Shown in pieces: positions 4,686 through 57,143 of a DNA stretch of 64,000 nt. The DNA comes from Candidatus Magasanikbacteria bacterium RIFOXYC2_FULL_42_28. GTDB taxonomy: Bacteria > Patescibacteriota > Patescibacteriia > Magasanikbacterales > GWA2-37-8. A program made the position numbers and the translations under genes. The DNA lies in assembly GCA_001784435.1 (NCBI GenBank), contig MFQZ01000002.1:12502-76501 (forward strand), in the 5' to 3' direction. The stretch's first letter is position 1; each line of letters starts with the position of its first letter. Below the pieces are notes generated by a model, which was not told where the DNA came from, made no database searches, and was given only the letters and a program-made list of their open reading frames with translations.

Positions 4686-5096
4686 TTAATTTTTATTATC
4701 GGGTTTATGTAAAAAGTAGTTTAACCATTTAATCGGATTGGCCAAGTTTTTAAATTCTAACATATTATTGTTTTCCTGTCCAACTTTTATTCCCGCCACG
4801 TTGGGGATAATTCCGATTTGTTCACCCGGTTTAGCCAAATTCAATTCCAAACGAGCTTTTTCTTCAATAAAATCCTCGGATTTAACATATGCCAAAGCAT
4901 CCAAAGTGCTTAATTTTTTTACTTCCAAACGTTTAACATCTTCTTGTAAACGCGCGATTTCTTGACGCACCTGATAATCCTCATAAAAAGCGCGAGCAAA
5001 AGCGGTAATAACAAAAATAGCTACCAAAAAACCAATGGCTAAAAACCAACGCGACCAAAAGAAATTACGCCATTTTTTGTTTGTTACTCCGGCCAT
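4686..5096 (-). CDS. septum formation initiator FtsB/DivIC-like protein
   Basis: Single TM followed by a coiled coil (QVRQEIARLQEDVKRLEVKK), with the size typical of FtsB. Confidence 0.45.
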   Translation of the reverse strand: MAGVTNKKWRNFFWSRWFLAIGFLVAIFVITAFARAFYEDYQVRQEIARLQEDVKRLEVKKLSTLDALAYVKSEDFIEEKARLELNLAKPGEQIGIIPNVAGIKVGQENNNMLEFKNLANPIKWLNYFLHKPDNKN

Positions 5097-5103
5097 ATCA
5101 CCG

Positions 5104-6372
5104 CTATTTTTTTATTTTTAAAAGCAATTCCCGCGCCACTTGCCTGTCATCCCAAGGAATTTTTACGCCACCACTAACGCAAATTACCGGCTCGGTTCCT
5201 TTGGCGGTAAATACCACCACATCGCCAACTTTTGCCAATAAGTATGATAACGCAAAAGCGCGTTTACGGTCAACCTCAATAAATAAATTTTGATTATCAA
5301 TTTTACCGGCCGAACGCGCGCCCGAAGCGAGCATTTCTGCAATCTGGGTCGCGTCTTCATCAAAACAATTTACATCGGTAACAATGACAATGTCGCATAA
5401 CCGGCCGGCCACTTCGCCCATTTTGGAACGTTTACCCACGTCCCGACCACCGCCATCCGAACCAATGACGCCAATAATTTTTTTATCTTTGGCGAGCGCG
5501 CGCAACGATTTAAACAGCGCGGTCAAACTAATTGGTTCATGCGCGTAATCAACTATCACGGTAAAATTTTGTCCGGCTTTAATAAATTCCATGCGTCCGG
5601 CGATTTCTTTAACACTCGCTAAACCTTGAGCAATTTTATCGTCGGGCATGCCTTGCGACTTACCAACTTCGATTGCCAAGACAGCATTAATAACATTAAA
5701 TTCTCCCGCGACATTTATTCGGTAGCCATAACTGCTATAATCAAATTCAATTCCCGACGCATCGCTATTTTTTATTTTAGCTGAACTGGGTCGGGCTTGA
5801 ATTCTTTTGTCAGCCGTAAATTGCGCGTAAAAAGGCGCGTGTTCGTCGTCGGAATTGACAATGCTAATTTTTTGAACCGTTTGACCGCCAAAAACTTTTC
5901 GGAATGATTGTAGACTTTTAAATAATTTTCCTTTGGCAGATTTCAAATTTTCAAAACCGCCGTGGCGTTCGGAATGTTCTGTGCCGAGATTAGTAAAAAC
6001 GGCAATGTCGTAATTTAAACCATAATGGCGATATTGGGCAATGCCTTCCGAAGAAGTTTCGACAACTGCGTAACGACAGCCCGCCGTAACCATATCGCGC
6101 AACATTTTATGAATTTGCCCTAAACCCAGCATGGTCATTTTTTTGTCATTCAACCAACGTTTTTCCGCAATCTGGAATTCCACGGTGGTGAGTAGGCCGA
6201 CTTTGTGCCCGGTGGCCTCTAACACGCTCGCTATAAAACGACAGGTGCTGGATTTACCTTTGGTGCCGGTAACGCCGACGACAATTAGTTTGCGGCTAGG
6301 GCGACCGTAATACCAATAGGTGGCGACGGCGATTAGATAATGTTTTAGTTCGTTTAGTTTTTGTTTTAACAT
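5104..6372 (-). CDS. Mur ligase family protein (MurE/MurF-like central and C-terminal domains; N-terminal domain absent)
   Basis: The P-loop GVTGTKGKSST lies about 35 aa from the N-terminus, and the Mur ligase central and C-terminal domain pattern follows. Confidence 0.65.
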   Translation of the reverse strand: MLKQKLNELKHYLIAVATYWYYGRPSRKLIVVGVTGTKGKSSTCRFIASVLEATGHKVGLLTTVEFQIAEKRWLNDKKMTMLGLGQIHKMLRDMVTAGCRYAVVETSSEGIAQYRHYGLNYDIAVFTNLGTEHSERHGGFENLKSAKGKLFKSLQSFRKVFGGQTVQKISIVNSDDEHAPFYAQFTADKRIQARPSSAKIKNSDASGIEFDYSSYGYRINVAGEFNVINAVLAIEVGKSQGMPDDKIAQGLASVKEIAGRMEFIKAGQNFTVIVDYAHEPISLTALFKSLRALAKDKKIIGVIGSDGGGRDVGKRSKMGEVAGRLCDIVIVTDVNCFDEDATQIAEMLASGARSAGKIDNQNLFIEVDRKRAFALSYLLAKVGDVVVFTAKGTEPVICVSGGVKIPWDDRQVARELLLKIKK

Positions 6373-6386
6373 AAATTATTATCAAT

Positions 6387-6466
6387 TGTCATCCCGGACT
6401 TGATCCGGGATCTCTGTCCAACGATTTTACGAACGGACAGGGATCCCGATTTTCATCGGGATGACA
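6387..6466. repeat. GC-rich palindromic element (GPE), two units head-to-head
   Basis: TGTCATCCCGGActtgaTCCGGGATCTCTGTCC-spacer-GGACAGGGATCCCGAttttcaTCGGGATGACA. The left half is the reverse complement of the right half. Confidence 0.8.
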
Positions 6467-6480
6467 AAACGAGTGAACGA

Positions 6481-7053
6481 CTAAGCTCGCAACGATGTCT
6501 CATACACCACCTGCTCCAATTTATGCAACGCCTGTTTCGCCTGATCAAATTTATTGCGATTGTATCCGGTCAAATCCATATCTACCAGTTCACCAATAAT
6601 TTCTTCCGCTACCGCATGGCATCTTTTTACCATTGGAAAATTTTTAGCAGTCGCGGATTTAATGGCATAACGATAAAGCTCGCCCGGCAAATCACACATG
6701 CCACCAATATAGGTATCGGGCTCAATTGGCAAACCGGAAATTTTCCCCAATTCCTTGCCATCACAAAATTGCTTAAATAAATATGCTTCCACATATTCTT
6801 CCACACCGGCCAAATATGCGCCTTCATCAAACAATGCACTATCGCCTTTAAATTGTTTTTGCAAAGCCAACAACATTTTTTCCGATTGCGCCAAACATTC
6901 TTCACCAACTTTTTTATCATCGCGCTGAAAGGCAAAAATCGCTTTTTTGGCAAAATGCTGGGCATCGCCAGCGGACTTAATTACCTCCCGACGTTTGGTG
7001 CGATAGCCCAAAATTTGGGTGCGGATGGTGGCGAGATATTTTTTGTTAATCAT
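6481..7053 (-). CDS. Translin-family-like protein (tentative)
   Basis: The C-terminal motif YIGGMCDLPGELYRYAI resembles the translin/TRAX DLTGELMR catalytic-Glu motif, and the ~190 aa helical size fits. Recalled from memory, not verified. Confidence 0.35.
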   Translation of the reverse strand: MINKKYLATIRTQILGYRTKRREVIKSAGDAQHFAKKAIFAFQRDDKKVGEECLAQSEKMLLALQKQFKGDSALFDEGAYLAGVEEYVEAYLFKQFCDGKELGKISGLPIEPDTYIGGMCDLPGELYRYAIKSATAKNFPMVKRCHAVAEEIIGELVDMDLTGYNRNKFDQAKQALHKLEQVVYETSLRA

Positions 7054-24418: not shown

Positions 24419-25459
24419 TTAAAAATAGTTTTTAACCGCAAATTCAAATTGTTGAATAAATAATTCTTTTAAATATGCCAAACTATTTTGCTCATAAAAT
24501 AATAACATGGCTTTTTTGTATTCAGTTTCATCTAAACTGCGCAGAGACATCGGACACCAATCATTGGCCAACAGCAAAGCATTCGCGACAATACGACTTG
24601 TGCGTTTATTGCCATCAACAAACGGCTGGGTGTAGGCAATGAGAGCCAGAGCAAACAGCGCTTTTTCTGGCGGACTTTTAGTTTTATTTATTACTTCAAC
24701 TATTTTTGCTACCGCGTCTTCGATTTGGAAGCGATTATCAATCGGCTGATAGTTGGTACCAATAATCCGCACTAAAATACTGCGCCAGTTATCAGGCACG
24801 TCCAAATCTTTTATAAGCAACGAATGAACGTCGCGTATTTTGATTGGCTTTAATAATTTAAATTTGGTCGGATCGGACAAAATATAATCAAAAGCGACTT
24901 TGTGATTTAAAATCATTATCGCTTCTTTTTTATTATGCCCACTCGCTTCACGTGCTTCTTTAATTAAAGTTTCCGTTTCAAAAAGCGAATAGGTATTACC
25001 TTCCAAACGCGATGATTTCCAGCTAATTTCAATTGTCAGCCGTTCTAATTCTTTTTTTAAGGCGATTGGACTTAAGCGCGTGCGTTTAGTTTGATATTCA
25101 TTGTTTATCTTTTCCAAACGCGTCAATTCCGATGAGGTAAATACATTTTCAAACCAATTAAAAATTTCCCAATTAAATTTTTCTTTAATATCGCGTTGAT
25201 CTTGTGATTTTTTAAAATACACATCTGGAGAATAATAATATAACAATGGATTACTAATTTTGGGCAAATAGACCACTGCTCTCGCCTTCCCCTTTTTAAT
25301 AATCAAATTAGCGATTAACAACGCTTCCAAATCACGTAAAATCGTTGGTTTGGAAATTGCATCAAATTTAGTGGCGATTTCAGCTAAAATTGAACTTTGG
25401 GGCGCCTCGCCATTTTTTTGAAGATACTCTAAAATAGCGTTTTGTCGCTGTGTTAACAT
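24419..25459 (-). CDS. Fic/Doc family protein with N-terminal wHTH. The motif is Doc-type (NKR) with His replaced by Gln
   Basis: The Fido motif reads QPFVDGNKRTSR where the canonical form is HPFx(D/E)GN(G/K)R. An HTH-like N-terminus is present. Confidence 0.55.
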   Translation of the reverse strand: MLTQRQNAILEYLQKNGEAPQSSILAEIATKFDAISKPTILRDLEALLIANLIIKKGKARAVVYLPKISNPLLYYYSPDVYFKKSQDQRDIKEKFNWEIFNWFENVFTSSELTRLEKINNEYQTKRTRLSPIALKKELERLTIEISWKSSRLEGNTYSLFETETLIKEAREASGHNKKEAIMILNHKVAFDYILSDPTKFKLLKPIKIRDVHSLLIKDLDVPDNWRSILVRIIGTNYQPIDNRFQIEDAVAKIVEVINKTKSPPEKALFALALIAYTQPFVDGNKRTSRIVANALLLANDWCPMSLRSLDETEYKKAMLLFYEQNSLAYLKELFIQQFEFAVKNYF

Positions 25460-32362: not shown

Positions 32363-34288
32363 CTATTCATCTATATTCTCCACTCGATTTGGCAAAATTG
32401 TTCTTGGCTGGGTTGGACGAGTGATTGACATGTTTCTAGGCTCGCTTTGCTCGCTCGGAACACCAAGGCTTCGCCGTGCTACGCCCCGCGAACCAGGACC
32501 AACAGAGTTTGATTTTGGTTGAAGTGATGACAGTGACATCCCCTTTTCGTTTGGATCTGTTAAAATTATTGGAGTGGGGCTACCAAAAGAATTACTGGCT
32601 TGATCATTTTTATGGCGATTGCGGTGGCGTTTTTTTTTAGGTGGTTGCGTGCCGAATTGAGGTTGTGCAATAGGTCGCGGTAAGGAATTGCTTACCGACT
32701 TAGTTGGGATCGGAATGATAGTTGAGCCAGAGATCCCGACTTTCGTCGGGATGACAGGCGAAGTTGGTGCACGGGATAGAGATTCCTCCTTCGGCGTCGG
32801 AATGACAAACGCATGCTTAACCGAAACCACCCCCTCGCCCCCTCCTTGAAAAGGAGGGGAAATTGACGGCGATTTAATTGGTACCGGTGCTTTTTCAAAC
32901 ATCGCCTCGTCATCATCTACTTCCAATTCCGATGCATCGTCATCGTTCATAATCACCATCCCACTCCAGCGCGCAATTTTATCTTCAATCTTATCTTTCG
33001 GCACGGCATAGCGTTCACGCGACACGCGCACTACTTTTTCTTGGCTATGCGTGGTTTGAGCAATGGGTGGCAAAGTTAAGGCGGAAAAGGGTTTACTCGC
33101 AATCCCATCAATCATTAATTTTAAATAAATATGATACTTGGGCAAATTCACCAGGTCCTCTTCAATAAAAGTTGGAATAAATTCTTTGGCCAAAATTTCC
33201 GCGTCCGTGGATCCAACCCGAAATGTTACCATCGTGCCCACGTTGCCGATGACCGCGGCCAACACTTCTTCTTCTAACTGTTCCATATACTGATGCGCCA
33301 TAATCAAATCCAAACGATATTTACGCGCTTCGGATAAAATATTAGCAAAACTTTCCGTGGCAAAATTTTGAAATTCATCAACATACAAAAAGAAATCTTT
33401 GCGATCTTTTTCCGGCGTGTCTACCCGCTCCATCGCGGCCAACTGTAATTTAGTGATAAGCATGCCACCCAAAAGCCGTGAATTATCTTCACCAATTCGG
33501 CCTTTAGCCAAATTCATGATTAAAATCTTTTTGTTATCCATTATTTCGCGAATATCAATGCGCGATTTAACCTGCGCCACAATATTGCGAATAACCGAGG
33601 CGGATAAAAATTGACCGATTTTATTTTGAATAGGGGCAACAGCTTCCTGGCGATATTTATCATTGTAAGCGGCGAATTCTGTCTGCCAAAACGCTTTCAC
33701 CACCGGATCTTTTAAATTGGCCACGACGCGTTTACGATAATCCGCGTCCGCGAGCAAGCGGTTGATACCAAGTAAAGTCGTACCGGGAAAATCCAATAAC
33801 GCCAAAATAGTATTGTTCAAAATATATTCCATACGCGAACTCCAAACATCCGGCCAGATTTTTTTAAACACACCCATTAGCCCCGACGCGACCAAATGTT
33901 TGTATTCCGGGCGCACGGTTTCTAAAATATTAAAACCGATTGGAAAATCAATGTCCGAGGGATTAAAATATATCACATCGTTGATGCGATGAGGCGGAAT
34001 GAAATCAATAATTTTTTCCGCGAAATCGCCGTGCGGATCAACTAACCCCACACCATGCCCGGCATAAATATCGTTCAAAACCATGTTTTCCAAAATCGTC
34101 GTCTTACCCATGCCAGTTTTGCCCACCACATACATATGGCGACGACGGTCATCAACTTTAATGCCAAATTTACGATTTTGATTACGATAATTTACCAAAC
34201 CAAAAAAATTGATCTCGGGGTTAATCGCGACCAAGGATTTTGGTTCTGCCGGAGCTGGTGTTATCGGTTGATCAAATTCGTCGGACAT
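32363..34288 (-). CDS. soluble VirD4/TrwB-like (type IV coupling protein family) P-loop ATPase with low-complexity C-terminal tail
   Basis: Walker A YVVGKTGMGKTT followed by GLVDPHGDF, compared with TrwB GxTGxGKS...VDPNGD. No N-terminal TM. The C-terminal ~200 aa is Pro/Ser-rich and hosts in-frame GPE copies. Confidence 0.5.
   Translation of the reverse strand: MSDEFDQPITPAPAEPKSLVAINPEINFFGLVNYRNQNRKFGIKVDDRRRHMYVVGKTGMGKTTILENMVLNDIYAGHGVGLVDPHGDFAEKIIDFIPPHRINDVIYFNPSDIDFPIGFNILETVRPEYKHLVASGLMGVFKKIWPDVWSSRMEYILNNTILALLDFPGTTLLGINRLLADADYRKRVVANLKDPVVKAFWQTEFAAYNDKYRQEAVAPIQNKIGQFLSASVIRNIVAQVKSRIDIREIMDNKKILIMNLAKGRIGEDNSRLLGGMLITKLQLAAMERVDTPEKDRKDFFLYVDEFQNFATESFANILSEARKYRLDLIMAHQYMEQLEEEVLAAVIGNVGTMVTFRVGSTDAEILAKEFIPTFIEEDLVNLPKYHIYLKLMIDGIASKPFSALTLPPIAQTTHSQEKVVRVSRERYAVPKDKIEDKIARWSGMVIMNDDDASELEVDDDEAMFEKAPVPIKSPSISPPFQGGGEGVVSVKHAFVIPTPKEESLSRAPTSPVIPTKVGISGSTIIPIPTKSVSNSLPRPIAQPQFGTQPPKKKRHRNRHKNDQASNSFGSPTPIILTDPNEKGMSLSSLQPKSNSVGPGSRGVARRSLGVPSEQSEPRNMSITRPTQPRTILPNRVENIDE
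32706..32807. repeat. GC-rich palindromic elements inserted in-frame in a CDS (two or three units)
   Basis: cagAGATCCCGActttcgTCGGGATGACAgg and GGATAGAGATTCCtccttcggcgtcGGAATGACAaa, translated on the minus strand as ...FVIPTPKEESLSRAPTSPVIPTKVGISGS... Confidence 0.75.
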
Positions 34289-54597: not shown

Positions 54598-54645
54598 TGA
54601 AGTTCAAAGCCAATAGTTCATAGCCAATAGCACGAATGGGGCTGA
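54598..54645. repeat. half copy (one arm) of the CCAATAG family element
   Basis: gtgaagttcaaagccaatagttcatagccaatagcac. Confidence 0.5.
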
Positions 54646-54681
54646 GCGATCTATTACAAAATATAATATAAATTTGTCATT

Positions 54682-55020
54682 ATGGAAATTATTTTAAAAA
54701 GTTTAATATCGGCGGTAATAACAGGACTAATTTTAGTTGTTTCAAATTATGCTAGCCCAAAATTGGCTGGGGCGCTTGGTGGCATACCGATTGTATTCGC
54801 AGTGTCGTATGTTCTGATAACAATGCAAAACAAATCGGTTGCCAAAGATTTCTTGGCGGGGGGGGTATACGGCGCCATTGCGGCCATATTTTTCAGTATA
54901 ATTCTGATACTATTCAATTACTTATTCCCCAAATATCACTGGGTTAATTTTATAATTGCTTACGCGCTTTGTTTTTTAGCCGCGTTTGGCATGTCATATT
55001 TTACAACAAAAAATGTATGA
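54682..55020 (+). CDS. hypothetical small membrane protein
   Basis: Four hydrophobic segments. Confidence 0.3.
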   Translation: MEIILKSLISAVITGLILVVSNYASPKLAGALGGIPIVFAVSYVLITMQNKSVAKDFLAGGVYGAIAAIFFSIILILFNYLFPKYHWVNFIIAYALCFLAAFGMSYFTTKNV

Positions 55021-55038
55021 AACACAAAACCATAAAAT
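55016..55038 (+). repeat. 23-bp direct repeat, copy 1
   Basis: TATGAAACACAAAACCATAAAAT, identical to 57046-57068. It encodes a truncated MKHKTIKLP*. Confidence 0.7.
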
Positions 55039-55042
55039 TACC

Positions 55043-55075
55043 ATAAAAAAAACAACCCTTATAAAAAGAGTTGTT
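55043..55075 (-). terminator. rho-independent terminator of the tRNA-like RNA
   Basis: On the minus strand, AACAAC-13 nt loop-GTTGTT followed by T8, immediately after the encoded CCA. Confidence 0.5.
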
Positions 55076-55080
55076 TAACT

Positions 55081-55169
55081 GGTGGACGGAGGGGGAATCG
55101 AGCCCCGAAACTAGAGTAGCAATTCTAGACGTGGAGCCATCCACTCTCCGCCCTCGAGTCCACCGTCCA
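55081..55169 (-). ncRNA. tRNA-like small RNA (89 nt, encoded CCA; non-canonical fold)
   Basis: The 5' GGACGG pairs with the 3' CCGTCC-A-CCA. T-arm GGGG-CTCGATT-CCCC. The internal segment forms GTGGA-TGGC-TCCAC and CTAGA-ATTGCTAC-TCTAG hairpins instead of a canonical anticodon arm. Confidence 0.5.
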
Positions 55170-55170
55170 C

Positions 55171-55179
55171 ATTATATCA
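55171..55179 (-). promoter_or_regulatory. extended -10 promoter (TGaTATAAT) for the tRNA-like RNA
   Basis: On the minus strand, TGATATAAT ends about 6 nt before the first G of the RNA. Confidence 0.45.
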
Positions 55180-55367
55180 TAATTACAGACAAACAAAAAG
55201 AACTCCCTTGCGGGAGTTCCGAGATCGGAGTGGATATAGATTCCACGCCTGAATTGCTACTAATGATAGTATATTCTAAACTAAATATTTTGTCAATCCA
55301 TTTATCCACACCTTATAAAACACAAAATCATAAAATACCGGAACATTCCTAACAAATTCAACATTCT

Positions 55368-56534
55368 ATGTACAAACAAATAACCGAAATTTTTACTTAC
55401 AATTTTACTGTCGCCACTGACGGCCTGTATGCAATTTATTTATCCGCCTCTTGTGGTAGAAAAAATTACTTACGCACGGAACTTGACGGATCGGCTTTAA
55501 AAAGTCTTACGCCAAAAAGAAAAAATAAATATTTTAATATTCCCCCATCGTGGAACGGCAACGAATTGAAAGGGACTTCCAAAACAATTGTTTTTGTTAT
55601 AAAATTGCTCAAAGGCAATCATGGATTAAATTTCATTCCCAAAGGAAAAGTGGAAATAACAACGGAGCCGAAAATTACAGAAATAAATGATGCCGGTCTG
55701 GTAGCGCTTTTCAGTGATATTCAAAGCGAAAATAAAAATTGCCAACCATGGATTACGGTCGCACTGATTAATTTGCCTTTAAGATTTTTTGATGCTTCAA
55801 TAATGTGTAAAAAGAAATTTTTAGACAGCGACGATGTAAAATTGATAATTGATGAACAGATTCAAAAAAATCCACTCAAATCTATCTGGCGCGGCAAGAA
55901 CTGGTTTTGGCGTGGCGCGGAAATAAAAGGCAATGCTCAAACTAACAGGTTTTACCCTGACTTGCCGACAGGTACCCATTATATAGATCTGTGGTCAGAT
56001 GGCACACCAATTTTAAAAAGTTTGGATATTTTGTTGATTAGAGAGGACGCAATAAAAAGAATTCCGACCGTAGATAACCCAGAGTGGACCGGCGATTTTT
56101 TAGACGATCCCGAAGAAATTATTTTAGCCAGATTGATATTCGGCGAAGCCAATAGTGAGCCACAAAAGACCAAAGAATGGGTCGGCTGGTCGGTGATTAA
56201 CAGGACTAAAGCAAAATCGTGGTGGCCGAATACTATTCATGGCGTAATTCTGCAGGCGGGACAGTATGATCCATTTAAAACCAAGGATCCGAATTTTGAA
56301 AAAATAATCAATCCTCTTAATTATAAAAATGTCGGCGAGACGGACAAAAAAAACTGGTTCGAATGTTATGATGTCGCAAAAAGTATTATCTTAAAACAAA
56401 GCGCTAATCCCACGGAAGCTACACATTTCCACGGCGCTGGCGTCACCGAAGATTGGTTTCGAAGACACATAGTACCAAAAGGCAAATTTATTAAAAAAAT
56501 CGGCAATACTTATTTTTACTGGAGTCCAAATTAA
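55368..56534 (+). CDS. protein with C-terminal SleB/CwlJ-type cell-wall hydrolase domain
   Basis: C-terminal ARLIFGEANSEP...VILQAGQYDPF...ATHFHG matches Hydrolase_2 (SleB) motifs. The ~250 aa N-domain is unknown. Confidence 0.5.
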   Translation: MYKQITEIFTYNFTVATDGLYAIYLSASCGRKNYLRTELDGSALKSLTPKRKNKYFNIPPSWNGNELKGTSKTIVFVIKLLKGNHGLNFIPKGKVEITTEPKITEINDAGLVALFSDIQSENKNCQPWITVALINLPLRFFDASIMCKKKFLDSDDVKLIIDEQIQKNPLKSIWRGKNWFWRGAEIKGNAQTNRFYPDLPTGTHYIDLWSDGTPILKSLDILLIREDAIKRIPTVDNPEWTGDFLDDPEEIILARLIFGEANSEPQKTKEWVGWSVINRTKAKSWWPNTIHGVILQAGQYDPFKTKDPNFEKIINPLNYKNVGETDKKNWFECYDVAKSIILKQSANPTEATHFHGAGVTEDWFRRHIVPKGKFIKKIGNTYFYWSPN

Positions 56535-56537
56535 GAT

Positions 56538-57035
56538 ATGTTTTTTAGAATTACCAAAATTATTATTTTTTTTACGATTGTCGCAATTTTTGAAATCATC
56601 GGTATTTATCTATACCGCCCGTCTTTGATGATTGACACTTACCGCGGAGACGACGAATCCAGTATTTGGATTACAACCAGATATTTTGATTTTCAGAAAA
56701 AAATTTCTGATACAGATATGTACAAGTTTGACGACATCCAATGGTCGCCAAATGGCAGATATTTTTCTTATTATGATTTTGTGAGATTAGAATGGGCGGA
56801 TAAAGAATGGGCATTAAAAATTGTTGATGCCAGATTTTTTATCACAAAAATATTATTTATCGGCGATTATCATACGGGTTCTTATGATTGGCTCGATGAT
56901 AATACAATAAGAGTTTGCGCCAACGCCGGCAGTGGAGTAAGACAGTGCCGAAATATTGATATACACGAAAAACAGCCGGTGGTCGCGATAGACGATTATG
57001 GCTCTGACGCATGGCAAATGATTAAAACTTTTTGA
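56538..57035 (+). CDS. hypothetical protein with N-terminal TM
   Basis: 165 aa with one TM. Confidence 0.3.
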   Translation: MFFRITKIIIFFTIVAIFEIIGIYLYRPSLMIDTYRGDDESSIWITTRYFDFQKKISDTDMYKFDDIQWSPNGRYFSYYDFVRLEWADKEWALKIVDARFFITKILFIGDYHTGSYDWLDDNTIRVCANAGSGVRQCRNIDIHEKQPVVAIDDYGSDAWQMIKTF

Positions 57036-57045
57036 TTTATTAAAT

Positions 57046-57068
57046 TATGAAACACAAAACCATAAAAT
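57046..57068 (+). repeat. 23-bp direct repeat, copy 2
   Basis: TATGAAACACAAAACCATAAAAT, here starting an intact 31-codon ORF. Confidence 0.7.
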
Positions 57069-57143
57069 CACTTTGGACAGTAGTTGCTATAATTGGAATT
57101 TTGGCGATGCTATTTTTTACGATGTTGCCGATATTTCAGTAAA
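57048..57143 (+). CDS. small hydrophobic peptide (31 aa), not in the ORF track
   Basis: ATG AAA CAC ... CAG TAA translates to MKHKTIKSLWTVVAIIGILAMLFFTMLPIFQ. Its first 21 nt are duplicated at 55018. Confidence 0.3.

Follow-up and report, generated by a model that had tools for sequence, protein, structure and literature searches.

Irregular tRNAs (8/4, 9/3, and G3:U70 "allo" forms) are known from metagenomes, and the question is what controls them and why cells retain them. Anticodon loops of 8 nucleotides (nt) occur in the frameshift-suppressor tRNAs of the sufD/sufA/sufJ type. RNase P-processed antisense RNAs with a CCA end also have precedent, in the C4 RNA of phages P1 and P7 and the CI RNA of P4, whose paired ends and CCA mimic a tRNA acceptor for RNase P and whose loops base-pair with a complementary transcript made close by, within an accessory element. 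Regarding function, 8/4 tRNAs that carry G3:U70 are matured, aminoacylated with alanine, and employed by Escherichia coli ribosomes (Mukai et al. 2017, NAR 45:2776, PMC5389517). Irregular tRNAs often lie close to toxin-antitoxin or mobile elements and may have roles outside translation (PMC5389517). A natural tRNA with an 8-nt anticodon loop, the yeast mitochondrial tRNA-Thr(UAG), is translationally active (PMC7609411). Here, we describe a tRNA-like RNA gene and an adjacent, antisense small RNA (sRNA) gene in a 64,000-nt stretch of DNA (the window; contig MFQZ01000002.1, positions 12,502 to 76,501). The proteins encoded in the window were 100% identical to those of Candidatus Magasanikbacteria RIFOXYC2_FULL_42_28. 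The host is an uncultured groundwater bacterium of the Candidate Phyla Radiation (CPR), and the window a segment of its chromosome.

The tRNA-like gene is real and statistically supported, and its boundaries and architecture differ from those given in an earlier note on this DNA, which had described an autonomously transcribed 89-nt RNA that does not fold as a canonical tRNA. The G3·U70/A73 set, the 8/4 architecture, the adjacent antisense sRNA, and the cassette context had all been overlooked. We found no earlier description that combines an 8/4 alanine-type cloverleaf, a natural expanded anticodon loop, and a dedicated, separately promoted antisense RNA, which at this locus covers the anticodon loop and the 5' half of the tRNA.

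An irregular tRNA with an 8/4 branch

The 89-nt string was located on the minus strand (55168..55080), where its first 15 nt correspond to a leader and the best cloverleaf takes up the remaining 74 nt (55153..55080, minus strand), which we propose as the mature RNA. ARAGORN run at an 80% threshold (-ps80) found this 74-nt cloverleaf within the 89-mer and called it "tRNA-?(Ala|Ser)(tgct)"; the model was then refined with the Rfam alignment. Its acceptor stem, GGGCGGAG/CUCCGUCC, has 8 bp with G3·U70 as the sole wobble, whereas the acceptor originally suggested, GGACGGUG/CUCCGUCC, starts 15 nt upstream and contains a U·U mismatch that is absent from the new register. The 5' strand of the acceptor is followed by A9 and by a compact D-arm (GUGGA-UGGC-UCCAC, 5 bp, 4-nt loop), previously taken for an extra arm. 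After a 2-nt linker (GU) comes the anticodon arm, CUAGA-AUUGCUAC-UCUAG, with a loop of 8 nt, so the earlier remark that there is no 7-nt anticodon loop was right. The variable loop is UUUC (4 nt), the T-arm is GGGG-CUCGAUU-CCCC with a 4-bp stem, as already reported, and A73 precedes the encoded CCA, the RNA ending in ACCA as had been seen. All 22 of 22 pairs are standard, and the lone G·U falls precisely at 3:70. The alleged inability to fold as a tRNA thus did not hold, since the RNA forms a near-canonical cloverleaf in which only the anticodon loop is too long.

The 8/4 branch (8 bp of acceptor plus 4 bp of T stem) adds up to 12 pairs with zero mismatch. In the whole window, this was the sole zero-mismatch 12-bp acceptor/T branch with a NUCRANN loop and NCCA, against 0.03 in each shuffled window, and two perfect hairpins filling the interior appeared in only 1.2% of shuffles (p≈0.012). 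Given the rarity of both the branch and the interior hairpins, the tRNA-like fold is not a chance pattern.

The region 54700-55600 was scanned permissively against Rfam (E≤10). The only covariance matches with E<0.05 belonged to the tRNA clan, namely tRNA-Sec (RF01852), with 24.4 bits (E 0.028) over the full 87-nt stretch and 22.4 bits (E 0.0075) on the 74-nt stretch, both below the gathering score of 47. The earlier note would have been refuted had covariance models scored the RNA as a standard tRNA; this was not the case, and none reached its threshold. The RNA departs from the canonical tRNA (RF00005) in its 8/4 branch, the 8-nt anticodon loop, G at position 8, and C at position 54, and forcing a 7/5 acceptor/T split costs a C·C mismatch. 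Compared to tRNA-Sec, the branch has 12 instead of 13 bp, the loop is AUUGCUAC and has no UCA anticodon, and the variable region has 4 nt. The branch of the (8/4) allo-tRNAs is present without mismatch (GGGCGGAG/CUCCGUCC plus GGGG/CCCC), in a single sequence and with no covariation support, while their long serine-type variable arm and 7-nt anticodon loop are replaced by UUUC and 8 nt. In the 74-nt register, the alanine identity marks G3·U70, G2:C71, A73, and CCA are all found. On its sequence, the RNA is best filed as an intact but irregular tRNA, a relative of the known 8/4, G3:U70 irregular tRNAs.

Several other classes were considered and discarded. For a transfer-messenger RNA (tmRNA), ARAGORN gave no result with -m, in agreement with the earlier opinion, or with -m -ps80; there was no Rfam tmRNA match and the length is only 74-89 nt. 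ARAGORN intron modes gave only implausible models of a split or intron-containing tRNA, and an integron attC site was also rejected. The C4 and IsrK/CI families were absent from the Rfam matches at E≤10 in 54700-55600.

Upstream of the gene, the extended -10 element TGATATAAT was read at 55179..55171 (minus strand), one of 10 TGnTATAAT sites in the window (4.7 in random sequence). The element is as previously described, but its spacing is not: the hexamer ends 2 nt, rather than about 6, before the claimed 5' end, so that the expected transcription start, at ca. 55164, would lie inside the 89-nt RNA. A start there would leave a leader of ca. 11 nt ahead of G1, probably the usual layout of a tRNA gene. 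Within the stretch of leader and flank, GGACGGUGGACUCGA (55154..55168, minus strand; inverted repeat I7), both GGACGGUG and GGUGGAC could pair with the 3' end instead, and at least three pairings with the 3' end compete in this 5' region. Downstream, the terminator scan confirmed the stem-loop and T8 seen before as an intrinsic terminator with an 11-bp stem, a 5-nt loop, and U8 (55042..55076, minus strand).

An adjacent, predicted antisense sRNA

Directly upstream and co-oriented with the tRNA-like gene, we predicted a 67-nt sRNA consisting of AGUAGCAAUUCAGGCGUGGAAUCUAUAUCCACUCCGAUCUCGG and a terminator hairpin (55195..55261, minus strand). The promoter scan gave a near-consensus promoter, TTGACA-17-TATACT (55268..55296, minus strand), with an 11/12 match; sites matching this well numbered 13 in the window, against 2.5 expected. 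The predicted +1, 55261, is precisely the first base of complementarity to the tRNA-like RNA. A terminator hairpin of 9 bp (5 of them G-C) followed by a U-tract was found by the terminator scan (55199..55220, minus strand), and the terminator ends 16 nt before the -10 of the tRNA-like gene. The fold of the sRNA has a z-score of -3.7.

The first ca. 50 nt of the sRNA are antisense to the tRNA-like RNA, from -8 in the leader to position 39. Contact with G29-U39 amounts to 11 contiguous bp and covers the whole anticodon loop; the other complementary blocks correspond to the D-arm, to the 5' strand of the acceptor, and to ca. 8 nt of the leader. The complementarity includes an exact 10-mer. The antisense alignment scored 43, compared to 15±3 (maximum 32) in 3000 dinucleotide shuffles and to a maximum of 28 among 2981 genomic 45-mers. 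The duplex energy was -52.5 kcal/mol (shuffles, -27.5±3.8), and the heterodimer of the sRNA with the mature 74-mer reached -68.1 kcal/mol versus -57.2 for the monomers, a gain of ca. 11 kcal/mol. At the DNA level, the sRNA gene corresponds to the 5' half of the tRNA, copied in inverted orientation and diverged, and ends just past the anticodon loop. Complementarity beyond chance between two transcripts predicted to be separately promoted is what would be expected of an antisense pair.

A T-box-like pairing with the NCCA end was discarded, as the sRNA has no UGGU. Just upstream of the -35 element of the sRNA gene there is a perfect DnaA-box 9-mer (TTATCCACA, 55302-55310), and a 15-nt stretch including it, CCATTTATCCACACC, recurs upstream of a homolog of the neighboring hydrolase (see below) in L085. 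With a single perfect box at 55302 and no clustering, an oriC or DnaA-box cluster was rejected.

A small module within a 2.4-kb insertion

The RNA module occupies a 347-bp gap between a 112-aa membrane open reading frame (ORF) (54682-55020, plus strand) and a SleB-like cell-wall hydrolase (55368-56534, plus strand), with lepA and murJ upstream and recJ downstream. In related Magasanikbacteria and other relatives, a small ORF starts a few bases after lepA and is followed by a 141-aa ORF and recJ; relatives with this order (L005 and L101-L104) have an empty site where the window carries a 2.4-kb insertion (54598..57046) made up of the 112-aa membrane ORF, the RNA module, and the SleB-like hydrolase with a 165-aa ORF. 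In the window, the intact small ORF (31 aa, predicted membrane protein) lies at 57047..57142 (plus strand).

The sequence ATGAAACACAAAACCATAAAAT is present three times in the window, at 55017, 55315 (2 mismatches), and 57047. Copy R1 (55017..55038, plus strand) marks the left edge of the RNA module, where it overlaps the 112-aa ORF at its stop codon, copy R2 (ATAAAACACAAAATCATAAAAT, 55315..55336, plus strand) marks the right edge, and R3 (57047-57068) is the first 22 nt of the 31-aa ORF. The insertion thus reads as three modules parted by copies of the target sequence, the beginning of the small ORF, and the RNA pair as one of them, of ca. 0.3 kb and flanked by 22-nt repeats. The junction between lepA and the 31-aa ORF is an insertion hot spot in the window, the site being empty in relatives. 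No integrase was found near the lepA-recJ insertion. Since the insertion is absent from relatives and the CCA is encoded, unlike in the host tRNAs (none of the three ordinary tRNAs of the window, Thr, Gly, and Lys, encodes it, as the earlier note had pointed out), the RNA module was probably acquired from outside. The tRNA-like nature proposed there is borne out, and "aberrant or suppressor tRNA" and "att-associated" are both plausible, the insertion being bounded by direct repeats.

The hydrolase and 165-aa gene pair was also found elsewhere, in other contexts. A homologous pair is located directly after an AbiEii-family nucleotidyltransferase toxin gene in L089 (1956-2738) and L091 (2169-2996), which represent a related genome plus a second locus of the same genome; this position suggests that the pair travels with accessory or defense DNA. 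Searches of the 112-aa, 165-aa, and 141-aa ORFs with Pfam, NCBIfam, and PADLOC gave nothing relevant. A tie of the RNA pair to the neighboring proteins was dropped, because these domain searches were uninformative and no Fem-type transferase is encoded in the window.

Proposed mechanism and alternative explanations

The reading that we consider best, and hold tentatively, is that of an acquired irregular tRNA, possibly a suppressor, under the control of a dedicated antisense RNA. The locus would be a small, recently acquired module of two RNA genes. The first would be transcribed from the extended -10 promoter with a leader of ca. 11 nt, presumably removed by RNase P to give the 74-nt RNA. AlaRS (alanyl-tRNA synthetase) does not read the anticodon, and with G3·U70 and A73 present, the RNA is a likely substrate of this enzyme whatever its anticodon. 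Its anticodon loop can be viewed as a UGC enlarged by one U, or as a GCU with a surplus U on the 5' side; hence, if admitted to the ribosome, the RNA would insert alanine and work as a suppressor of the frameshift or the missense kind. Decoding could take the form of GCA plus a base or of AGC read as Ala, but it may also be that the RNA never reaches the ribosome. The second gene would produce, from its near-consensus promoter, the 67-nt sRNA, whose free 5' end would meet the anticodon loop through 11 bp, pairing then being able to spread over the D-arm and the 5' strand of the acceptor into the leader. With the precursor or the mature form of the tRNA caught in such a duplex, processing or use would be prevented, and the sRNA would follow the logic of an antisense "antidote" or a switch. 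The proposal starts from what is directly observed, namely the sequence features, the geometry of the fold, the complementarity, and the setting within an insertion. It predicts that the RNAs are transcribed, that the tRNA is processed, charged, and used by ribosomes, and in which direction control runs. We favor a functional pair because the stems are intact, the G·U falls at 3:70 together with A73, the two genes have separate expression signals, and contact is made between a free 5' tail and a loop.

Going one step further, the locus could be an RNA-only addiction or recoding cassette, a mobile module of ca. 0.3 kb in which the antisense sRNA restrains a tRNA that is charged with alanine and has an enlarged anticodon loop. 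This extension is speculative, and we think it improbable. If true, the tRNA would cause frameshifting or Ser/Ala miscoding and the sRNA would unfold it from the anticodon loop to the leader, and it would be the first toxin-antitoxin-like or switchable suppressor system with a tRNA as effector and an anti-tRNA sRNA as regulator.

Several observations weigh against a controlled, functional tRNA. With default settings, ARAGORN found no tRNA at 55080-55168, only the three ordinary tRNAs of the window, and so did Rfam at gathering thresholds. The cloverleaf (-30.2 kcal/mol) is not the minimum free energy (MFE) fold (-32.7 kcal/mol), and the MFE fold of the precursor is a rod in which the leader GGUGGAC pairs with GUCCACC and can make the 3' end inaccessible. 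Recombination could equally have left the partial duplications, tandem and inverted, at the 5' end as scars, and the RNA departs from the tRNA consensus by G8 for U8, C54 for U54, the 4-nt D-loop, and the 2-nt linker between D and anticodon arms. The five assemblies carrying the module match the window without any difference over 2.5-7 kb and provide no evidence of covariation or conservation; the module was seen in one clonal population only, and both structure and pairing rest on one sequence. The search for homologs in related genomes that the earlier note had called for, done with nhmmer and the tRNA-like RNA, the sRNA, and the whole module as queries, returned only self matches in 80 lepA-syntenic GTDB loci. 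A mis-called 93-aa ORF covering the module, used as a protein query, also gave only itself (its cluster mate is identical DNA), blastn against phage and plasmid collections and four pattern scans of viral contigs found no homolog, and a single-sequence covariance model run on ca. 0.5 Mb of CPR loci recovered only ordinary tRNAs, at ≤21 bits. The same three nhmmer queries found no homolog in loci of the hydrolase homologs or in lepA loci at 78-86% identity. The flanking repeat, used to scan metagenomes, retrieved the small ORF in other CPR contigs and a coincidental mutS coding sequence, and no module.

One of the viral-contig matches was an ordinary phage tRNA-Cys(GCA) with encoded CCA (L092, 307-380), which has the same unusual T-arm as the tRNA-like RNA (GGGGCUCGAUUCCCC, with C54). 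The common T-arm could be a coincidence or a hint of a phage source.

The main rival, and a serious one, is that these are recombination scars in an insertion hot spot, i.e., the rearranged remnant of a tRNA gene that an integrating element brought or targeted, with no function in the cell, which we regard as somewhat unlikely. On this view, recombination would have left behind the tandemly repeated 5' acceptor strand, the inverted duplicate of the 5' half, and the 22-nt repeats on either side, and the promoter- and terminator-like sites would be incidental or leftovers from the donor. Confinement to one clonal population with no homolog in the searches fits this explanation, as do a hot spot with a repeated target sequence, three competing 5' registers that suggest local duplication, and a sub-threshold score with every tRNA model. 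A decaying relic should nevertheless have mismatches in its stems, yet 22/22 pairs are intact, and the copies have diverged in loop and linker, not in the stems. Nor would it be expected that the inverted copy has a near-consensus promoter, a +1 at the first complementary base, and a strong terminator of its own.

The pair might instead work outside translation, the RNA being a tRNA-scaffolded riboregulator of the C4/CI kind, with the acceptor/T minihelix and CCA serving only as signals for processing and stability (RNase P, 3' trimming). In that case, the loops of the tRNA-like RNA would be the antisense element and the upstream "sRNA" its target, a leader with an attenuator-type terminator, and the tRNA-like RNA would control read-through or the activity of the sRNA itself. 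The co-orientation of both units with the first terminator 16 nt ahead of the second -10, a complementarity that extends to the 5' arm of the sRNA terminator, and an 8-nt loop and aberrant core (G8, C54) that argue against ribosomal use are all compatible with it. We still consider it quite unlikely, because C4 and IsrK/CI gave no Rfam match even with the permissive cutoff, there is no downstream gene to regulate (the next one is convergent), and a full four-arm cloverleaf with the alanine identity pair exceeds what a processing handle needs. Far less probable is the RNA as first described, which would span 89 nt from 55168, use GGACGG(UG) as its acceptor, carry an additional hairpin inside, and lack a genuine anticodon arm. 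Such an RNA would mimic a class-II or Sec-like tRNA, or else be a mini-tmRNA whose internal ORF reads MAPRLELLL. It is true that Rfam tRNA-Sec aligns the full 87-nt stretch (24.4 bits) with the second hairpin as variable arm and that the acceptor/T-branch scan also found this 8/4 branch, with one mismatch. That mismatch, U·U, disappears in the 74-nt register, though, and the longer RNA would have to start just 2 nt past the -10 hexamer, with an "anticodon" loop of only 4 nt. As a tmRNA, it was negative with ARAGORN even in relaxed mode, its 3:70 pair is A-U and confers no alanine identity, and there are no pseudoknots.

A functional pair would mean that bacteria are able to keep a potentially miscoding tRNA under the control of an sRNA, and that an RNA-RNA module belongs among the small mobile cassettes of CPR genomes. 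If it is debris, the locus is a clean case of partial tRNA duplications creating an antisense transcript.

Other features of the window

Elsewhere in the window, the minus strand encodes at 9676-32314 a split PPDK_N-domain protein followed by at least 10 tandem paralogs of ca. 470-510 aa, each with a C-terminal PEP-utilizers mobile domain and an otherwise unrecognized N-terminal part. Two His_Phos_1 proteins and a Fic protein (24419-25459) are scattered through this array, which is unusually large for a small CPR genome. At 32363-34288 (minus strand), a TrwB/TraG-like type IV coupling ATPase appears amid housekeeping genes.

At 6385-6467 (minus strand), a GC-rich three-way-junction repeat, GTCATCCCG...CGGGAT / CCCTGTCC...GGACAGAG / ATCCCGGA...TCCGGGATGAC, fills the short gap between an ORF coding for a Translin-family protein (6481-7053) and a Mur ligase gene (5104-6372). 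It was picked up by the acceptor/T-branch scan and discarded as a false tRNA-like match. A related element, GTCATTCCGAGC...GGGATGAC, was found upstream of the small ORF (the 31-aa ORF of the window) in another CPR contig (L099, about 4800-4930).

Comparison with known systems

The tRNA-like RNA resembles tRNA-Sec (RF01852), its best Rfam family, in the long acceptor, the 4-bp T stem, the long D stem, and the 4-nt UGG-containing D-loop, and differs from it in having 12 pairs rather than 13, no UCA anticodon, and no long variable arm. With the (8/4) allo-tRNAs it shares the 12-bp branch split 8/4, the tRNA-Sec-like appearance to covariance models and, in some of them, G3:U70 (PMC5389517). In contrast, the variable arm of allo-tRNAs is long and their anticodon loop has 7 nt, where this RNA has 4 and 8 nt, no antisense partner has been reported for them, and they come from phyla other than Patescibacteria. 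The sufD/sufA/sufJ suppressors and tRNA-Thr(UAG) are alike in that the anticodon loop is one nucleotide larger in an otherwise complete cloverleaf. Unlike the present RNA, whose decoding is hypothetical, both derive from normal 7/5 tRNAs, the former as mutants and the latter as a dedicated variant.

As for the C4 and CI RNAs, they lack a full cloverleaf or T-arm, have no sequence or structure match here through Rfam, and regulate downstream protein genes, of which this locus has none. To our knowledge, no known toxin is a tRNA, and a peptide toxin as in type I toxin-antitoxin systems is implausible here, the 9-codon internal ORF having no ribosome-binding site. The organization is nonetheless reminiscent of RNA-RNA (type VIII-like) and type I toxin-antitoxin systems, in which a compact accessory module likewise joins an antisense RNA with strong (here, predicted) expression to a potentially harmful RNA partner and the first contact is also that of a 5' tail with a loop.
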